32,000 nucleotides of DNA from Sinorhizobium meliloti (GCF_017876815.1 NZ_JAGIOS010000001.1:1920001-1952000); one strand, 5' to 3'. Numbered from the stretch's first letter, positions 4,127 through 16,157 are shown. Notes: generated by a model from the sequence alone, not told the origin. A program made the numbers and translations.

Positions 4127-4564
4127 ATGACGTTTGGATCCATCCTCCTGTTTTCCTTGGCAATTTCCGCTTCATTTCTCTCTGCCGGCGATGCCCGCGC
4201 CGATTTTCGAGTCTGCAACGGGACGCAGACTCTGGTCGGCGTGGCAATCGGTTATCGGGCCAAGGAAGGCTGGGTGACGGAAGGCTGGTGGCAGGTTCCG
4301 GCGACGACCTGCGCCACGCTGATCGAGGGCGAACTTCAGTCCCGATATTATTATCTCTACGCGGAAGATGCGGCCAAGGGCGGCCGTTGGACCGGCGATG
4401 TCAACATGTGCGTGGCCGAGAACGAGTTCAAGATCGTCGGCGTGCAGGACTGCTTCGCCCGCGGCTTCCAGCGCATGGGATTCAAGGAATACGACACGGG
4501 GCGGCAGGGAAGCTGGATGGTTCAGCTTTCCGACACGCCCGGCACGCAGGAAAGCCAGAATTGA
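4127..4564 (+). CDS. Secreted DUF1036 family protein
   Basis: Start chosen at ATG 4127. This gives a clean signal peptide (MTFGSILLFSLAISASFLSAGDARA/DF). The mature part has 4 Cys and the DUF1036-like FRVCNGT...GWW...YYYLYAED pattern. The stop TGA at 4562-4564 overlaps the pyk ATG. Confidence 0.75.
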   Translation: MTFGSILLFSLAISASFLSAGDARADFRVCNGTQTLVGVAIGYRAKEGWVTEGWWQVPATTCATLIEGELQSRYYYLYAEDAAKGGRWTGDVNMCVAENEFKIVGVQDCFARGFQRMGFKEYDTGRQGSWMVQLSDTPGTQESQN

Positions 4565-6855: not shown

Positions 6856-7030
6856 CGTAGCCCGCCATGAAACAAGATCAAATCAATTTTGGGAAATCGG
6901 CGAGCAAGCCGCCGTGTTCCAGTTTTCCTCGGGTCGCTCCCGCTTCGGGAAACGTGCAGTCACCCAAGTGGTACGATCTTTGCGCATCCGCCAAGACGCG
7001 CGGCGCTGCAGGCACGGCCTGCAGCAAGCA

Positions 7031-7156
7031 TCAGCCCTGGCGTGCCTTGAAGCGCGGGTTCAGCTTGTTGATGATGTAGACGCGGCCCTTGCGACGAACC
7101 AGGCGGTTTTCGCGGTGACGGGTCTTCAGGGACTTGAGCGAATTCTTGATCTTCAT
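7031..7156 (-). CDS. rpmJ: 50S ribosomal protein L36 (Cys-less, YkgO-like form)
   Basis: Not in the ORF track because it is under 60 aa. The reverse complement of 7031-7156 reads [41 protein letters not shown], with AGGAAAA just upstream of the ATG. Confidence 0.9.
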
Positions 7157-7212
7157 TTTTCCTGATCCGCAGGTTTCGGGGAACGAAAATTCGCCCGGTA
7201 ATTCCAACAATC

Positions 7213-7235
7213 AAAAGCGCGCCGTTCAGCGCGCT
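7213..7235 (-). terminator. Terminator-like hairpin between purK and rpmJ
   Basis: On the minus strand: AGCGCGC-TGAACG-GCGCGCT followed by TTTTG. It lies downstream of the purK stop and upstream of the rpmJ start. Confidence 0.5.
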
Positions 7236-7250
7236 GTTCAAGTAGGCAGG

Positions 7251-7279
7251 CACATACCGTGTCGACCCAATCGTGTCAA
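7251..7279 (-). promoter_or_regulatory. Candidate sigma-70 promoter reading toward rpmJ
   Basis: The minus strand reads TTGACA (7279-7274), a 17-nt spacer, then TATGTG (7256-7251). Confidence 0.35.
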
Positions 7280-7329
7280 CCGCGTGCCGGGGATTTTGCC
7301 GCCTGTCCCCGCCTTCCGTGGCGTCCCCG

Positions 7330-8379
7330 TCAGAGCAGGCGGGTGAAGTGCCCCATTTTGCGGCCGGGCCGCGCCTCGGCCTTGCCGTAGAGATGAAGGA
7401 ACACATTGCGCTCGGCAAGCAAGTCCGGAACGCGGGCGATGTCGTCGCCGACCAGGTTCTGCATCACGCAATCCGAATGGCGCGACGGGTCGCCGAGGGG
7501 CAGGCCTGCAATCGCGCGGATATGCTGCTCGAACTGCGAAACGACGCAGGCGGCCTCCGTCCAATGGCCGGAATTGTGTACGCGCGGCGCGATCTCGTTT
7601 GCGACGACGCCGCCGTCGGCCAGAACGAAGAACTCGACACCGATGACGCCGACATAGCCGAGCGCGTCGAGGATGGCGGTTGCCGCCTTGCGGGCGGCCT
7701 CCGTGGCTGACGGACCGACGGATGCGGGCACGGTCGAGGTGTGGAGAATGCCGTTGCGATGCACATTCTCGGCAGGATCGAAACAGGCGGTCGTGCCGTC
7801 GGCCGCGCGTGCGGCGATGACCGAGATCTCCCGGTCGAACGGCACGAAGCTTTCGAGGATCAGCGGTACCTGTCCGAGCGCGACATAGGCGCCGGCCGGA
7901 TCGTCGGTAGCGGAACGAAAGACGCGCTGGCCCTTGCCGTCGTAGCCGAGCCGGCGGGTCTTGAGCACGCCGGCGCCGCCGAATTCCGCAAGGGCGGCCT
8001 CGAGGTCGGCCTGGCTGTCGACGGGTTGGAATCCGGCGGTGGCGATGCCACAGCCGTTGATGAAGCGCTTCTCGGCGAGACGGTCCTGTGCCACTTCCAG
8101 CGCCTTCGGCGGCGGAAAGACCGGCCGCGAACGGGCGAGTTGCTCGGCGGCCGAGACCGGGACGTTCTCGAATTCGTAAGTGATGAGATCCGCCACCCGC
8201 GCAAGCTCGTCCAGCGCGCGCGGATCGTCATAGGCGGCGACGATCTGGTCGTTCGCCACCTGCGCCGCCGGACAGTCCGGCTGCGGCTCGAGCACCACGG
8301 TGCGGAAGTTCAGGCGGGCAGCGGCCATGGCCAGCATGCGGCCAAGCTGGCCGCCACCGATGATGCCGATGGTCTTCAT
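7330..8379 (-). CDS. purK: N5-carboxyaminoimidazole ribonucleotide synthase
   Basis: 349 aa, [25 protein letters not shown]..., ATP-grasp PurK pattern. The start overlaps the purE stop as ATGA. Confidence 0.93.
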
Positions 8380-10855: not shown

Positions 10856-11509
10856 ATGAGCAACATTGAAGACCGCTGCCGCCTCGTGCTGGTCGTTCCG
10901 GATATCGCAGATAGCGCGGAACGCGCGAGGCTCGTCGGCGAGGCGCTGAAGGGCGGCGACGTAGCGTCGGTGATCGTGCCGCAATACGCGCTCAGCGATG
11001 CGGATTTCCAGAAGCATGCGGAAGCGCTCGTGCCGGTGATCCAGCAGGCCGGCGCCGCGGCCTTGATAGAGGGCGACACACGGGTCGCCGGACGGGCGAA
11101 GGCGGACGGTCTCCACATCGCCGGCGGTCCGGATGCGCTGGCCGATGCGATCGAGCGGCACGCGCCGAAGCTGATCGTCGGCGGCGGCAACGCCACCGAC
11201 CGTCACCATGCGCTCGAGATCGGCGAGCTGCGGCCCGATTACGTTTTCTTCGGCCGCACGGATGGCGACATAAAGCCGGAGGCGCATCCGAAGAACCTGG
11301 CACTCGCCGAATGGTGGGCGTCGATGATCGAAATTCCCTGCATCGTCATGGGCGGCACGGATCCGCAATCCGCGCTTGCGGTCGCTGAAACCGGTGCCGA
11401 GTTCGTGGCGCTCCGCCTTGCCGTCTTTGGTGAGGCCGGTCAGGCACCGTCGGTGGTTGCGGCCGTCAACGCATTGCTTGACGAAAAAGCGCCACGGTTT
11501 GAAGGTTAA
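10856..11509 (+). CDS. Thiamine-phosphate synthase (ThiE/TenI) family protein
   Basis: 217 aa with TIM-barrel TMP-synthase-like segments (LVLVVP..., GADGLHI..., IPCIVMGG...AETGAEFVAL). No other thi genes or TPP riboswitch lie nearby, so the exact function is uncertain. Confidence 0.6.
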   Translation: MSNIEDRCRLVLVVPDIADSAERARLVGEALKGGDVASVIVPQYALSDADFQKHAEALVPVIQQAGAAALIEGDTRVAGRAKADGLHIAGGPDALADAIERHAPKLIVGGGNATDRHHALEIGELRPDYVFFGRTDGDIKPEAHPKNLALAEWWASMIEIPCIVMGGTDPQSALAVAETGAEFVALRLAVFGEAGQAPSVVAAVNALLDEKAPRFEG

Positions 11510-11518
11510 GACCTGCCG

Positions 11519-12664
11519 ATGGTAATCCGCTCTCTCCTGAAATCCAGCCGGCCCGCAGCCCTTGCCGCCGCGATGCTTCTTGCAGTCGCGCCGGCAGCGG
11601 CTCAGCAACCGGTCGCGCCTGCGCCGGCCGACGAGGGCAGCGCGCCGAAGCGCGGGCGGATCACGCCTTTCAACGGCGCGGTACTGCCGGAGGATACGGA
11701 GCGCAAACCGGCAGCGGCCGGTCCGGAAAAGCCGAAGGCCAGCGACGGCAGCGCGCCTTCGAAGGGCGTCACCGTGTTCGATCGCATGGGAGCCGAATTG
11801 CCGGCTCTGCCCGAGGAAAAGCCCTTCACCGGCAAGATCGACGAAGCCTATGGCGCCTTCCAGCGGGGTTACTACCTGACGGCGATGGACCTTGCCTTGC
11901 CGCGGGCCCAGCTCGGCGATCCCGCCGCCCAGACGCTCGTCGCCGCGATCCTGGAACAGGGCCTTGGCGTTGCACGCGACGCCAAGGCCGCCGCCTTCTG
12001 GTACGGCCAGGCGGCGAACAATGGCGACCCGGCCGCCATGTTCAAATATGCGCTGATCCTGATGGAGGGCCGCTACGTCAAGCGCGACCGGGAGAGGGCC
12101 GACGAACTGATGAAGAAGGCTGCCGATCTCGGCAACGCCTCGGCCCAGTTCAACTACGGGCAAACGCTCGTGGCCGACATGCCGGGCGAGCGGGGGCTGA
12201 AGGCGGCGATGCCCTATTACGAGAAATCCGCCGAACAGGGCATTGCGGATGCGCAGTATGCGCTCTCGCAGATCTATCTCAATGTCGACGGCATCGAGGA
12301 GAGCAAGCGGGCCCGTGCGCGCGAGTGGCTGCTCAGGGCGGCGCGGGCCGGCTATGACACCGCGCAGCTCGACATTGCCATCTGGCTGATCGAGGGGATC
12401 GCCGGCGACCGCAATCTCGAAGAGGGGTTTGCCTGGATGAAACGCGCCGCCGAAAGCGGCAACGTCGTCGCCCAGAACCGGCTCTCCCATCTCTATGTCA
12501 ATGCCATCGGAACCCGTCCGAACCCGGTGGAGGCGGCAAAGTGGTACGTGCTCTCGCGCCGGGCCGGCCTCAAGGACGATGCGCTCGAGGATTTCTATCT
12601 CGGCCTCAACGAAACGCAGCAGAAATCGGCGCTGACGGCGGCAAACAAGTATCGCTCGACCTGA
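11519..12664 (+). CDS. Secreted Sel1-like repeat (SLR/TPR) protein
   Basis: 381 aa. It has a signal peptide (LAAAMLLAVAPAAAQQ), a Pro/Ala-rich linker, and then repeated A-x-WY-x-AA-xx-G-x-A-x-AQ-x-LG Sel1 units. Confidence 0.8.
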   Translation: MVIRSLLKSSRPAALAAAMLLAVAPAAAQQPVAPAPADEGSAPKRGRITPFNGAVLPEDTERKPAAAGPEKPKASDGSAPSKGVTVFDRMGAELPALPEEKPFTGKIDEAYGAFQRGYYLTAMDLALPRAQLGDPAAQTLVAAILEQGLGVARDAKAAAFWYGQAANNGDPAAMFKYALILMEGRYVKRDRERADELMKKAADLGNASAQFNYGQTLVADMPGERGLKAAMPYYEKSAEQGIADAQYALSQIYLNVDGIEESKRARAREWLLRAARAGYDTAQLDIAIWLIEGIAGDRNLEEGFAWMKRAAESGNVVAQNRLSHLYVNAIGTRPNPVEAAKWYVLSRRAGLKDDALEDFYLGLNETQQKSALTAANKYRST

Positions 12665-12904: not shown

Positions 12905-13705
12905 ATGGCCCGCTCCGCCCTTCTCAATGTCATGGTCCAGGCCGTCTTCAAGGCCGGCAAGTCGCTGGCACGCGATTTCGGCGAAGTACAGAACCTGCAG
13001 GTTTCCTTGAAAGGCCCGGCCGACTACGTTTCGCAGGCGGACCGCAAGGCCGAGCGGATCATCCGTGAGGAGCTCATGAAGGCCCGCCCGACCTACGGCT
13101 TCCTCGGCGAGGAGGGCGAGGAGATCAAGGGGACGGACGGCGCCCACCGCTGGATCGTCGATCCGCTCGACGGCACCACCAATTTCCTTCACGGCATCCC
13201 GCATTTCGCCATCTCTGTCGCGCTCGAGCGCCAGGGCGAGATCGTCGGCGCGGTCGTCTTCAACCCGGCGACGGACGAGCTCTACACCGCCGAGCGAGGC
13301 GGCGGCGCCTTCCTGAACGACCGCCGCCTGCGCGTCGGTGCGCGCAAGGCCCTCTCCGATGCCGTGATCGGGACCGGCACGCCGCATCTCGGCCGCGGCA
13401 ATCACGGCAAGTATCTGGTCGAGCTGCGCCACGTCATGGGTGAAGTCGCCGGCATTCGCCGCATGGGCTCCGCCTCGCTCGACCTCGCTTATGTTGCGGC
13501 TGGTCGCTTCGACGGCTTCTGGGAACGGGACCTTGCCGCCTGGGACATGGCTGCCGGCCTCTTGCTCATCCGCGAAGCGGGTGGGTGGTCCACCGATGCC
13601 GAAGGCGGCGGCAAACCGCTGGAAGCGGGTTCGATCGTCTGCGGCAACGAGCATATCGCGAAGGCGCTTCGCGAGGTGATCCAGCGCCCGATTCCGTCCA
13701 AGTAA
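12905..13705 (+). CDS. suhB: Inositol monophosphatase family protein (SuhB)
   Basis: 266 aa with FLGEEG...WIVDPLDGTTNF...WDMAAG motifs of the IMPase family. Confidence 0.9.
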   Translation: MARSALLNVMVQAVFKAGKSLARDFGEVQNLQVSLKGPADYVSQADRKAERIIREELMKARPTYGFLGEEGEEIKGTDGAHRWIVDPLDGTTNFLHGIPHFAISVALERQGEIVGAVVFNPATDELYTAERGGGAFLNDRRLRVGARKALSDAVIGTGTPHLGRGNHGKYLVELRHVMGEVAGIRRMGSASLDLAYVAAGRFDGFWERDLAAWDMAAGLLLIREAGGWSTDAEGGGKPLEAGSIVCGNEHIAKALREVIQRPIPSK

Positions 13706-13720
13706 CGGCAATATAATTCA

Positions 13721-13745
13721 CCCGGAACCGTGCAACGTTTCCGGG
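13721..13745 (+). terminator. Weak hairpin downstream of suhB, with no T-run
   Basis: CCCGGAA...TTCCGGG 7-bp stem plus an inner 2-bp extension. It lacks a U-tract, so termination is uncertain. Confidence 0.25.
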
Positions 13746-14019
13746 ACGGCGACATGCATAAAACAGCAACCTGAAGCGCGCCCAATGAATTCGATTTGAA
13801 TGCGACGCGCTTTAGGGCCGTGCCCTTTGTTTTCCCTTCAATTCGGCGCAAACTTCCACTAGTCTCCGGGCCAATACGGATGGCCTGCGGCCATCGGCAG
13901 CACCGCTCTTCGATCGTCCTCGATTCGGGAATGGTGCAGCAATTCAGAGTGATGCGGCCGCCCTCTTGTTCGTCGGACAGGCGCGGAAGCTGCCGCAAAA
14001 CCGGGAGACTGGCGAACTT

Positions 14020-15126
14020 ATGGCGAAACTGAATCTGTCCGGGTGGCGCGATCGCGAAGACGTGGAGGAGGACTACGGTCCGCACAAGCTTTCGAGCCCG
14101 ATGCCCTATTTCTGGACGATGGTCCTTTTCCTGATCATCGTCGGTTTCGTCGCTGCGATCCTCTTCCGCCAGGCAAGCGAGGCCTTCGCCGGCAATCCCG
14201 GCCTCAACGGGCTGATCCTGGGCGTGCTCGTGATCGGTATCCTGCTGGCGTTCAACCATGTCCTCAGTCTGAGACCCGAGGTTCGCTGGTTCAACTCCTT
14301 CCGTGCCGCCGGCAGCGCCGACAAGGTCGGGCGCGATCCGGTGCTGCTTGCGCCGATGCGGGCTCTCATCGGGGGCCGCCAAACGACGGTAATCTCGACG
14401 GCCGCGCTCCGGTCCATCCTGGATTCCATCGCTGCGCGCCTCGACGAGTCGCGTGACATCACCCGCTATCTCGCCGGCCTTCTCGTTTTCCTCGGCCTTC
14501 TCGGTACGTTCTGGGGCCTGCTCGGCACCATCGGTTCCATCAACACCGTCATCCAGTCGCTGGATGCGGGAAGCGGCAGCACGGACGATCTCCTGAGCTC
14601 CCTCAAGGGCGGCCTTTCGGCGCCTCTCACCGGCATGGGAACGGCGTTCTCCGCCTCGCTCTTCGGTCTTTCCGGTTCGCTCATCGTGGGCTTTCTCGAT
14701 CTGCAGGCGGGACGCGCGCAGAATCGCTTCTATACGGAGCTCGAGAACTGGCTCTCGTCGGTAACCGACGTCAGCTCCGGTTTTTCCTCGCCGGGCGACA
14801 TGACCGACGGCGCTCCGGTGGAAGAACTGCGGCGGCTCACCGACCAGCTCACGCGCCTGACGCATGACGGCGGCGTGAACCAGCGTACCACCGCCGCGAT
14901 GGCAAGCCTCGCCGAAGGCATCCAGGGCCTCGTCAAGAATATGCGCGGCGAGCAACAGATGCTGCGCGACTGGATCGAGGCGCAGCAGGAGGAGGCCAAG
15001 GCGATGCGCAAGACGCTCGACAGGCTGACGGCGCGCATCGGCCAGGCCGACCGGATCACCGTGCAAAGCGAGAAGGCCGTAGGACAGGCGAAGCTCAGCC
15101 GCATGGAAGACAGCGGAGGGGATTGA
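14020..15126 (+). CDS. MotA/TolQ/ExbB-like proton-channel protein with a C-terminal coiled-coil tail
   Basis: Start at ATG 14020, with GGGAGA 11 nt upstream. There are four predicted TM helices. The last pair (FLGLLGTFWGLLGTIG ... GMGTAFSASLFGLSGSLIVGF) resembles the MotA_ExbB channel core. A ~140-aa hydrophilic, heptad-rich tail follows (EELRRLTDQLTRL...MLRDWIEAQQEEAKAMRKTLDRL). Confidence 0.75.
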   Translation: MAKLNLSGWRDREDVEEDYGPHKLSSPMPYFWTMVLFLIIVGFVAAILFRQASEAFAGNPGLNGLILGVLVIGILLAFNHVLSLRPEVRWFNSFRAAGSADKVGRDPVLLAPMRALIGGRQTTVISTAALRSILDSIAARLDESRDITRYLAGLLVFLGLLGTFWGLLGTIGSINTVIQSLDAGSGSTDDLLSSLKGGLSAPLTGMGTAFSASLFGLSGSLIVGFLDLQAGRAQNRFYTELENWLSSVTDVSSGFSSPGDMTDGAPVEELRRLTDQLTRLTHDGGVNQRTTAAMASLAEGIQGLVKNMRGEQQMLRDWIEAQQEEAKAMRKTLDRLTARIGQADRITVQSEKAVGQAKLSRMEDSGGD

Positions 15127-15128
15127 TC

Positions 15129-16157
15129 ATGGCGCTTTCCCGACGCCGCGAACCGCGGGCGATCAACTACTGGCCGGGCTTCGTCGACGCACTCTCGACG
15201 CTGCTCATGGCGATCATGTTCCTGCTCAGCGTTTTCGTCACCGCGCAATTCCTGCTCGGCAGGGAGATCAGCGGTAAGGACGAGGTGCTGAACCGGCTGA
15301 ACAGCCAGATCAACGAACTCACCCAGCTTCTGGCGCTGGAGAAGAGCGGCAAGCAGGATCTCGAGGATTCGCTCGCCAATCTGCAGGCGTCGCTTTCACA
15401 GTCGGAAGGCGAGCGGTCCCGCCTGCAGGCTTTGCTCGACCGGGGCGCCGGCAGTGCCGAAGTCGCAGACGAAAAGATCGGCCGGCTTGGCTCGGAACTC
15501 GAAAACGAACGGCAGGTCAGCGCCCGGGCGATGAGTCAGATCGAACTCTTGAACCAGCAGATCGCAGCGCTTCGCAGCCAGATCGCCGCCATCGAAGGTG
15601 CACTCCAGGCATCCGAGGCGAAGGACGACGCCTCGCAGGCCAAGATAGCCGATCTCGGCCGCAGGCTGAACGTCGCCTTGGCGCAGCGTGTCCAGGAGCT
15701 CAACCGCTACCGTTCGGACTTCTTCGGTCGGTTGAGGGAGATCCTCTCGGATCGGGAAAACATCCGCATCGTCGGCGACCGTTTCGTCTTCCAGTCGGAA
15801 GTGCTCTTTCCGTCCGGCGGCAGCGACCTGAACCCGGAAGGGCAGACCGAGATGGCGAAACTCGCGACGGCCCTTCTCGACCTTGCCAAGGAAATTCCGG
15901 CGGAGATCAACTGGGTGCTGCGCGTGGACGGCCACACGGACGATGTTCAGCTGTCGGGGATAGGGCGCTTCCGGGACAACTGGGAACTGTCGTCCGCCCG
16001 TGCTACGTCCGTCGTCAAATTCCTGATCTCGAAGGGCGTTCCGGCCGACCGCCTGGTGGCGGCCGGCTTCGGGGAGTATCAGCCCATCGCACCGGGCGAA
16101 AGCCAGGAAGCACGCGCGCAGAACCGCCGCATCGAGCTCAAGCTCACGGAGAAATAG
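15129..16157 (+). CDS. MotB/OmpA-like peptidoglycan-binding stator subunit with a long coiled-coil linker
   Basis: ATG at 15129 lies 8 nt after GGAGGGG and 2 nt after the upstream stop. It has an N-terminal single TM helix with a MotB-type Asp (WPGFVDALSTLLMAIMFLL). A ~150-aa coiled coil follows. The C-terminal OmpA_C-like domain reads RVDGHTD...NWELSSARATSV...NRRIELKL. Confidence 0.8.
   Translation: MALSRRREPRAINYWPGFVDALSTLLMAIMFLLSVFVTAQFLLGREISGKDEVLNRLNSQINELTQLLALEKSGKQDLEDSLANLQASLSQSEGERSRLQALLDRGAGSAEVADEKIGRLGSELENERQVSARAMSQIELLNQQIAALRSQIAAIEGALQASEAKDDASQAKIADLGRRLNVALAQRVQELNRYRSDFFGRLREILSDRENIRIVGDRFVFQSEVLFPSGGSDLNPEGQTEMAKLATALLDLAKEIPAEINWVLRVDGHTDDVQLSGIGRFRDNWELSSARATSVVKFLISKGVPADRLVAAGFGEYQPIAPGESQEARAQNRRIELKLTEK

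Follow-up and report, generated by a model that had tools for sequence, protein, structure and literature searches.

Within a 32,000-nucleotide (nt) stretch of the Sinorhizobium meliloti chromosome (GCF_017876815.1, NZ_JAGIOS010000001.1:1920001-1952000; hereafter the window, with positions counted from its first nucleotide), two adjacent genes on the plus strand, SMc03993 (gene A, 14020-15126) and SMc03992 (gene B, 15129-16157), encode a pair of proteins that constitutes a separate branch of the 5:2 motor superfamily, one that is conserved widely and, as it seems, has not been studied so far. A (368 amino acids, aa) is a predicted channel-forming subunit of the MotA/ExbB/ZorA type, and B (342 aa) a predicted axle or anchor subunit similar to MotB. 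Their architecture, with four MotA-like transmembrane (TM) helices, a ZorA-like core, a miniature tail and a MotB-like anchor on a length-invariant coiled coil, has no counterpart among the families compared. That the two proteins form a wall-anchored ion motor of the 5:2 type is in our opinion very likely. The more complete reading, namely a housekeeping, proton-conducting motor of Alphaproteobacteria that has ZorAB as its nearest modelled kin and serves as a device of envelope homeostasis or sensing, is narrowly favoured; its functional part, the role in envelope homeostasis or sensing, is by itself proposed only tentatively.

Hydropathy analysis of A reveals four hydrophobic segments (residues 31-49, 64-82, 151-169 and 208-226), and the distribution of Arg and Lys in the sequence places both termini and the loop 83-150 in the cytoplasm. 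The first two segments, TM1 and TM2 (14110-14265, plus strand; hydropathy 2.75 and 2.40), enclose a short periplasmic loop and correspond to helices 28-47 and 60-97 of an AlphaFold2 (AF2) model, which was built with 66 relatives and has a mean predicted local distance difference test (pLDDT) score of 83; conservation of this region among 80 orthologues amounts to 63%. After a cytoplasmic loop of around 68 aa follows the channel core (14470-14697, plus strand), consisting of TM3 (87% conserved), a periplasmic loop of 38 aa and TM4 (81% conserved). TM3 contains the motif GLLGTFWGL with Thr163 (nt 14506-14508) and TM4 contains Ser213 (nt 14656-14658), both residues being invariant in the alignment of 66 sequences. 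The Pfam family MotA_ExbB (PF01618) is matched at residues 106-214 with 23.2 bits, i.e., barely above the cut-off of 22.9. Behind TM4, A continues into a cytoplasmic tail of around 140 aa (residues 227-368; 14698-15123, plus strand), which is helical in the AF2 model and exhibits heptad periodicity (z = 3.6-3.8 against shuffles). Among the 80 orthologues, identity within the tail reaches 79% in the helix directly following TM4 (227-254), 24% in a linker (255-287) and 58% in a long helix (288-345); the extreme C-terminal end is Sinorhizobium-specific (3% conservation). A Foldseek comparison of the A model with the Protein Data Bank (PDB) yielded among its top 50 matches exclusively A subunits of 5:2 motors (TolQ, ExbB, ZorA, MotA, PomA). 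Four TM helices, a MotA/ExbB core and a heptad-rich tail of this length had been proposed for A in the original prediction, made from the window's sequence, and hydropathy, Pfam, Foldseek and the heptad statistics agree with it in all three respects.

Among the families for which models exist, the best matches of A are to ZorA, the corresponding subunit of the Zorya anti-phage system. The hidden Markov model (HMM) ZorA1 of PADLOC matches A with E = 8e-13, covering profile positions 104-278 of 683, and the ZorA1 and ZorA3 models are matched by 66 out of 66 diverse A relatives (best E 1e-16). One ZorA3 match is restricted to the TM3-TM4 core (residues 147-232, E = 9e-10), such that the similarity between A and ZorA is no coiled-coil artefact. 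When a profile of the A family was compared to all PDB sequences, the sole motor chain retrieved was ZorA of Shewanella (8vvn), in which GVIGTFMGL aligns with GLLGTFWGL and AFLTS with AFSsS; it was reached by this profile search alone, since phmmer with A found zero matches in the PDB. B, for its part, matches the ZorB3 model at 6e-29. Judged by its sequence, A has more in common with ZorA than with generic MotA/ExbB, and the comparison to ZorAB, which had been drawn beforehand alongside others, proved to be the closest one.

B begins with an Arg-rich N-terminus, and its single TM helix (15168-15257, plus strand, as delimited by hydropathy; motif YWPGFVDALSTLL) opens with the motif YWPGFVD20ALSTLL, which includes the putative channel residue Asp20 (nt 15186-15188), an Asp that motors of this kind universally require. 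This Asp is present in every orthologue with a recovered N-terminus, invariant in an alignment of 50 sequences, and kept also in relatives of other lineages that share 40-50% identity; both the single TM helix and the conservation of its channel Asp had been predicted. The helix passes into a periplasmic coiled-coil stalk (15258-15746, plus strand) with AF2 helices and heptad periodicity (z = 3.0-3.7). The presence of a coiled coil at this place had been recognized before, whereas its length was underestimated at around 150 aa: it comprises about 163 aa in two helices. In the AF2 model of B (pLDDT 79; its alignment consisted of database proteins only), one helix (15-103) runs unbroken from the membrane into the periplasm, and a break at 104-108 separates it from a second helix (109-206), behind which the OmpA-type domain is situated (212-341). 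Gaps within the stalk are confined to 0-0.4% across 76 orthologues, with an identity of just 58-68% there, and most Hyphomicrobiales have a B protein of 342-343 aa in total. Conservation within B peaks (90%) in helix 171-211 directly before the OmpA domain, and B is more conserved than A.

The C-terminal OmpA/MotB-type domain (15762-16154, plus strand), which should bind peptidoglycan, is recognized by the Pfam model OmpA with 62 bits, and sequence matches in the PDB are to MotB, PomB and MotS. Concerning its fold, Foldseek retrieved MotS, the MotB-like structure 3khn, MotB of Helicobacter pylori and PomB with TM-scores of about 0.8 and root-mean-square deviations of 2.2-2.8 Å. The residues of the peptidoglycan-binding motif (D271, N284, L287, S288 and R291) are invariant. 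Hence the predicted OmpA-like domain is strongly recovered by HMM search, whereas the MotA_ExbB match of A, likewise anticipated, barely exceeds its threshold.

The pair exhibits the features common to the 5:2 superfamily, i.e., an A subunit with a channel core and with conserved polar residues in its final two TM helices, and a B subunit with a single TM helix and a conserved Asp. Within this superfamily, its organization is most similar to that of ZorAB (PDB 8qyd, 8vvn), for which ZorA Thr147 and Ser184 are described in Escherichia coli as an ion filter contacting ZorB Asp26 (PMC11946911). Equally, the two final TM helices of A carry a Thr and a Ser, opposite the Asp of the only TM helix in B; further common traits are a B helix leaving the membrane rigidly and without flexible linker, a MotB-like wall-binding C-terminus, and a coiled-coil cytoplasmic tail on A, and the best HMM and PDB-profile matches among the modelled families are those to ZorA. 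Despite this similarity, there are clear differences: A possesses four TM helices and ZorA three; the tail of around 140 aa contrasts with several hundred residues, or roughly 70 nm, in ZorA (PMC11946911); a coiled coil of 163 aa lies between TM helix and wall-binding domain in B, whereas ZorB has no such spacer; and partners of the types ZorC, D, E, F or G are missing, the pair occupying a syntenic site of the core genome rather than a defence island. The NCBIfam models ZorA_2 and ZorA_4 score about 18 bits on A, compared to cut-offs of 100 and 500. Membership in Zorya was therefore rejected, given the missed curated cut-offs, the short tail, the spacer in B, and the lack of zorC-G genes in the window and in the related loci examined.

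With the flagellar stators (MotAB, PomAB, MotPS), the pair shares the topology of four TM helices with cytoplasmic ends in A as well as the gene order A then B; the N-terminal TM-Asp motif of B (WPGFVDALSTLL) resembles that of MotB, and the fold of its wall-binding domain is closest to this group (TM-score about 0.8). The cytoplasmic loop of A, however, is short (around 68 aa), apparently with no recognisable torque-generating interface, and its C-terminal tail long, B has a rigid coiled coil instead of a plug and flexible linker, and the flagellar context is lacking. All NCBIfam stator equivalogs are missed by B, the best being MotD (97 bits against 283), followed by the MotB models (57-66 against 250-301); with the cut-offs for MotB, MotD and MotS missed, the short loop and the absent context, membership among flagellar stators was rejected as well. 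TolQR and ExbBD are similar in that the top Foldseek matches of the A model are TolQ and ExbB, and in their compact cytoplasmic domain and their non-flagellar, envelope-related role. They differ in that TolQ and ExbB have three TM helices, that TolR and ExbD possess neither an OmpA-type domain nor a long coiled coil, and that these motors act via TolA or TonB, for which no gene is adjacent to A and B. Because the domain of B is of the OmpA/MotB type and tolA, tonB, tolB and pal are absent from the window, the pair was not assigned to the Tol/Ton group.

The only family to which B belongs at full length is NF006544 (PRK09039, five sub-models), an NCBIfam equivalog named 'peptidoglycan-binding protein', which is matched over its entire profile (1-343/343) with 692.4 bits against a cut-off of 362; it is a naming model without function. 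A is annotated in a near-identical strain as 'MotA/TolQ/ExbB proton channel family protein'. The pair had been put forward as an undescribed system, and this has to be divided: an NCBIfam equivalog for B and a family annotation for A exist, so that both families are already catalogued, whereas no functional assignment was found in the literature; the novelty lies in the function and not in the existence of the genes. Among Creative Commons-licensed papers in PubMed Central and bioRxiv, no functional study of the pair was found, and papers of a general kind on stators, 5:2 motors, Zorya and the phylogeny of MotAB do not mention the alphaproteobacterial pair. A review of the Brucella envelope contains none of the terms MotA, MotB, ExbB or TolQ, no literature was found on the family NF006544/PRK09039, and a search by locus tag led only to the ChvI screen described below, with nothing under the presumed tags of Rhizobium leguminosarum.

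The family is large, with 2,841 clusters (50% identity) found at E ≤ 1e-3; at E ≤ 1e-30 there are 512. Gene neighbourhoods were compared in the 80 best loci from a scan of representative genomes, all belonging to Hyphomicrobiales, plus the S. meliloti reference (81 loci in total); these 80 loci span Sinorhizobium, Mesorhizobium, Ochrobactrum, Aureimonas, Roseibium, Microvirga and Bradyrhizobium. B directly follows A in 80 of the 81 loci, the sole exception being situated at a contig edge, and the gap between the two genes is 0-6 nt in most of them. The order thiE-rgsF-suhB-A-B…ABC(-)-rpmE is largely kept (suhB in 75/81, rgsF in 66/81, rpmE in 56/81 loci), and no flagellar neighbours occur in the 80 Hyphomicrobiales loci. 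The orthologues thus reside in housekeeping synteny and not in flagellar, Tol or Ton loci, as the original prediction demanded of a separate system. In more distant members the A-B pair is kept, too, often with suhB and efp still nearby; it was also found in Rhodospirillales-like genomes and in Reyranella, and the named close relatives of one distant B homologue are Rhodospirillum, Rhodospirillaceae and Rhodospirillales. Searches of plasmid and phage collections with tblastn retrieved no phage and no true plasmid, the only plasmid matches being records of 3.5-4.6 Mb, which we read as chromosomes filed as plasmids; a mobile or defence origin of the pair was rejected for this reason. Synteny, distribution and the lack of plasmid or phage carriers together argue for a vertically inherited housekeeping module and not for a defence island.

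Some of the distant loci show peculiarities of their own. In a metagenome-assembled genome of Reyranella (L084, 5042-6445), the B homologue comprises 468 aa, its coiled coil having grown by around five tandem units of around 20 aa each (…DLxxQRxSxxxLxxERDRL…), and its A partner of 574 aa has a longer tail; the lengths of stalk and tail may co-vary across lineages. In a Rhodospirillales-like locus (L082), a Pro-rich secreted OmpA-domain protein is encoded between suhB and A, and an unassigned membrane-anchored protein of 252 aa after B (7012-7917 and 10885-11643), both of them possible lineage-specific accessory parts. In locus L085 (8137-10263), the pair is directly followed by genes for a Peptidase_M15 (VanY-like) and an SLT lytic transglycosylase, i.e., enzymes of peptidoglycan remodelling. 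The only flagellar neighbourhood seen is that of locus L083 (1303-5087), in which hook genes of the flagellum (flgE, flgD and one of the Flg_hook/fliK type) lie upstream of the pair in divergent orientation.

As to the mode of action, the AF2 model suggests that two B chains would pair to a parallel coiled-coil axle that is rigid from the membrane onwards and has no flexible linker. At 0.15 nm per residue, the approximately 160 residues of the stalk would extend over up to about 20 nm if the helices were in line, the orientation at the hinge being uncertain. The distance between membrane and wall is roughly 9 nm in E. coli (PMC11946911), and ZorB is thought to be too short for reaching the wall at rest (PMC12422006). 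Since the modelled stalk would have about twice this length, the wall-binding domains could be permanently engaged, unlike those of ZorB, a stalk of set length placing them at the peptidoglycan layer. By homology with the solved complexes of MotAB, ExbBD, TolQR and ZorAB, five A chains would ring the two B helices and rotate around them with the passage of protons via Asp20. The filter of A, a Thr and a Ser with no further polar residues, resembles the proton-type filter of ZorAB. The five helices 288-345 might then constitute a short cytoplasmic bundle, comparable to a miniature ZorA tail, as the sole evident moving output. Most speculative are the last steps, according to which the device may report or maintain the connection between membrane and wall, perhaps in zones of growth; proton flow may be gated by how taut or slack the stalk is, and the target of the tail may be a partner whose gene lies elsewhere; a gating of proton flow by stalk tension appears unlikely to us. 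A still wider proposal, that the pair is the housekeeping counterpart of the Zorya sensor and may even have given rise to it in evolution, with a length-calibrated stalk measuring the membrane-wall distance or wall integrity and rotation of the tail translating it into a cytoplasmic signal or mechanical action, is rather doubtful.

A link to the envelope is hinted at by three observations, namely the peptidoglycan hydrolases beside the pair in L085, a group of polar-growth genes upstream of it, and a ChvI-bound fragment within A. The fragment in question, F10 ('intra SMc03993'), was bound by ChvI, the response regulator of the envelope-related ExoS/ChvI system, in a gel-shift screen (electrophoretic mobility shift assay; 1021 coordinates 2991422-2991677; PMC3687685). 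It corresponds to 14335-14590 of the window (no strand assigned) and to codons 106-191 of A. The polar-growth genes are three of the Rgs group, which precede the pair within about 13 kb and on the same strand: rgsC (SMc04010, 511-2328; 605 aa, Peptidase_M15_2/DUF882), rgsB (SMc04006, about 4127-4564; 145 aa, DUF1036) and rgsF (SMc03995, 11519-12664; 381 aa, with signal peptide and Sel1 repeats), the latter being a published essential polar-growth gene. With around 11 named Rgs genes by our count, three of them within around 12 kb of a 3.65-Mb chromosome are far above chance expectation. This clustering seems to have passed unremarked so far. A previous metabolic reconstruction tentatively made SMc03995 the missing thiamine-phosphate kinase, because the gene is essential and adjoins thiE2 (PMC5929573, supplement); in view of the later Rgs work, the signal peptide and the Sel1 repeats, this is unlikely.

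Several points have to be set against the favoured reading. The resemblance of A to known motors is modest in its details: Foldseek E-values are about 4e-3 and TM-scores 0.3-0.5, and the Pfam MotA_ExbB match is marginal not only in A itself, with 33 of 66 relatives reaching E < 1e-3. A5B2 stoichiometry, rotation and the use of protons are inferred by homology from analogous systems. With regard to the stalk as a ruler, the relative orientation of its helices is uncertain (predicted TM-score 0.44; pLDDT < 50 in the hinge 104-108), and the far longer stalk in Reyranella implies that the fixed length is lineage-specific. The conserved synteny takes in unrelated genes such as thiE and rpmE, so that the neighbourhood weighs little for function, and the ChvI site is intragenic and stems from an in vitro screen. 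Neither SMc03992 nor SMc03993 is enriched in pull-downs with RgsA, RgsB, RgsS, RgsP, RgsM or TolQ, as far as the pull-down tables considered extend (PMC7327166). Both genes are also absent from the S. meliloti transposon-sequencing (Tn-seq) table 'Essential and underrepresented genes', which includes their neighbours rpmE, SMc03991, suhB, rgsF and thiE2 (PMC5539429), and, in the section of it considered, from the essential-gene comparison of a second Tn-seq study, which contains suhB and rgsF (PMC5929573). From the absence in both lists it follows that the pair is very probably dispensable in laboratory media.

A more specific version of an envelope role would be that of a non-essential accessory to the zonal wall-growth machinery of Rhizobiales, at work in polar growth or division, in which proton motive force (PMF) and wall anchor would help to bring peptidoglycan synthases or hydrolases into place, or to shift them, at the growth pole or septum. 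This would fit the three Rgs genes that precede the pair on its own strand, the order rgsF-suhB-A-B in 66 of 81 loci, the Peptidase_M15 and SLT transglycosylase genes of L085, and the interaction of Rgs proteins in S. meliloti with Tol-Pal, itself a motor of this superfamily (PMC7327166). The pair is nevertheless improbable in this role: neither protein is among those enriched in the Rgs and TolQ pull-down tables considered, the Rgs genes figure in lists of essential genes whereas these two do not, their synteny extends to unrelated housekeeping genes, and they occur also outside Hyphomicrobiales, in Rhodospirillales-like genomes and Reyranella. Neither the Rhodospirillales-like lineages nor Reyranella are known for unipolar growth. 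An identity of A or B with one of the named Rgs proteins was rejected, since no Rgs protein is MotA- or OmpA-like and since the pull-down tables, to the extent considered, do not list the two. That no driven partner is encoded nearby, that B is more conserved than A, and that its stalk is free of indels as expected of a ruler would suit a passive tether or spacer, with B as a rigid strut from membrane to wall, A as its partner, and the Asp as a relic or needed for assembly only, so that no sustained rotation would take place. We regard such a strut as distinctly unlikely, because the invariance of Asp20, Thr163 and Ser213 across lineages sharing 40-50% identity is difficult to account for unless ions are conducted; the conservation of the tail helix 288-345 (58%) speaks against it, too.

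The affinity to Zorya could alternatively mean that the pair is itself an anti-phage sensor whose effectors are located elsewhere or have been lost, as ZorA1 and ZorA3 are the best HMM kin of A, B matches ZorB3, and a coiled-coil cytoplasmic tail is found on A as on ZorA. This is very unlikely considering the vertical, syntenic inheritance in the core genome over 80 species, the lack of a true plasmid or phage carrier and of any zorC, D, E, F or G, nuclease or helicase neighbour, the NCBIfam ZorA scores of around 18 bits in comparison to cut-offs of 100-500, and a tail of around 140 aa where that of ZorA measures roughly 70 nm. Source databases often name the two proteins 'flagellar motor protein MotA' and 'chemotaxis protein MotB', which would make them a spare or specialised flagellar stator; the fold of the B domain, closest to MotS, MotB and PomB, and the flgE, flgD and fliK genes divergently upstream in one distant locus would agree with such a name. 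It can hardly be correct, however: MotB, MotD and MotS equivalogs score 57-97 bits against cut-offs of 250-301, the TM2-TM3 loop of A measures only about 68 aa with a marginal Pfam match, and flagellar neighbours are missing in 80 of 81 loci. S. meliloti possesses its canonical motA and motBC elsewhere, in the flagellar regulon.

The window could be assigned to the S. meliloti chromosome by several lines of evidence. The product of gene A is 100% identical to an S. meliloti protein, and published primers for SMc04010 (rgsC), SMc04006 (rgsB) and SMc03995 (rgsF) match the window exactly, at 1809, 4175 and 12147, respectively. The coordinates of suhB (SMc03994) and of the ATP-binding cassette (ABC) exporter SMc03991 in strain 1021, as given in Table S1 of PMC5539429, map onto the window with zero offset, which identifies gene A as SMc03993 and gene B as SMc03992. 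The open reading frame of gene A opens at an alternative start codon (TTG 13966), with the first ATG located at 14020; the latter is also the start set in a near-identical strain by the Prokaryotic Genome Annotation Pipeline. Gene A ends with its stop at 15126, and the ATG of gene B follows at 15129 after 2 nt, with a GGAGGGG Shine-Dalgarno sequence for B inside the 3' end of A; the tight linkage and the positions as originally predicted were right.

Upstream, suhB ends at 13705 and is separated from gene A by a spacer of 314 nt (13706-14019, plus strand), which presumably holds the promoter of the pair. Its length had been given correctly and called unusually long, an emphasis for which we found no ground: the spacer contains a terminator-like hairpin (13814-13826) and one GANTC site (13922), there is no match to a sigma-70 consensus promoter and no full CtrA box in it, and an Rfam scan of the whole window, spacer included, gave zero matches. 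An RNA element in the spacer was rejected for want of an Rfam family, a consensus promoter and a full CtrA box. Downstream, the 3' ends of gene B (plus strand) and of the convergent exporter gene SMc03991 (minus strand) overlap by 14 nt (16144-16157). The exporter gene is listed as underrepresented in Tn-seq, and in other species it typically lies several kb away from B. Both suhB and the convergent exporter had been named correctly as neighbours, whereas rgsF just upstream of suhB had been overlooked. Neither fli, flg, tol, pal, tonB nor zor genes were found in the 32 kb of the window, just as predicted, and no nuclease or helicase gene neighbours the pair there; all neighbours are housekeeping genes.

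The characterised motors of this superfamily all power major processes, i.e., flagellar rotation, TonB-dependent uptake, outer-membrane stabilisation and division, gliding, type 9 secretion, and phage sensing, and the most likely result of studying one more branch would be the discovery of another PMF-dependent function of the envelope. The present pair belongs to the core genome of rhizobia, relatives of Brucella, Bradyrhizobium and Rhodospirillales-like bacteria, and since it is apparently non-essential, it should not be difficult to construct clean deletions and point mutants. As a relative of ZorAB outside defence, it would allow experiments on how the Zorya sensor arose and how it is gated, in a symbiont that is amenable to genetics. 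Should the pair indeed turn out to be the housekeeping counterpart of that sensor, it would constitute a new use of the 5:2 motor, namely envelope mechanosensing in normal growth.

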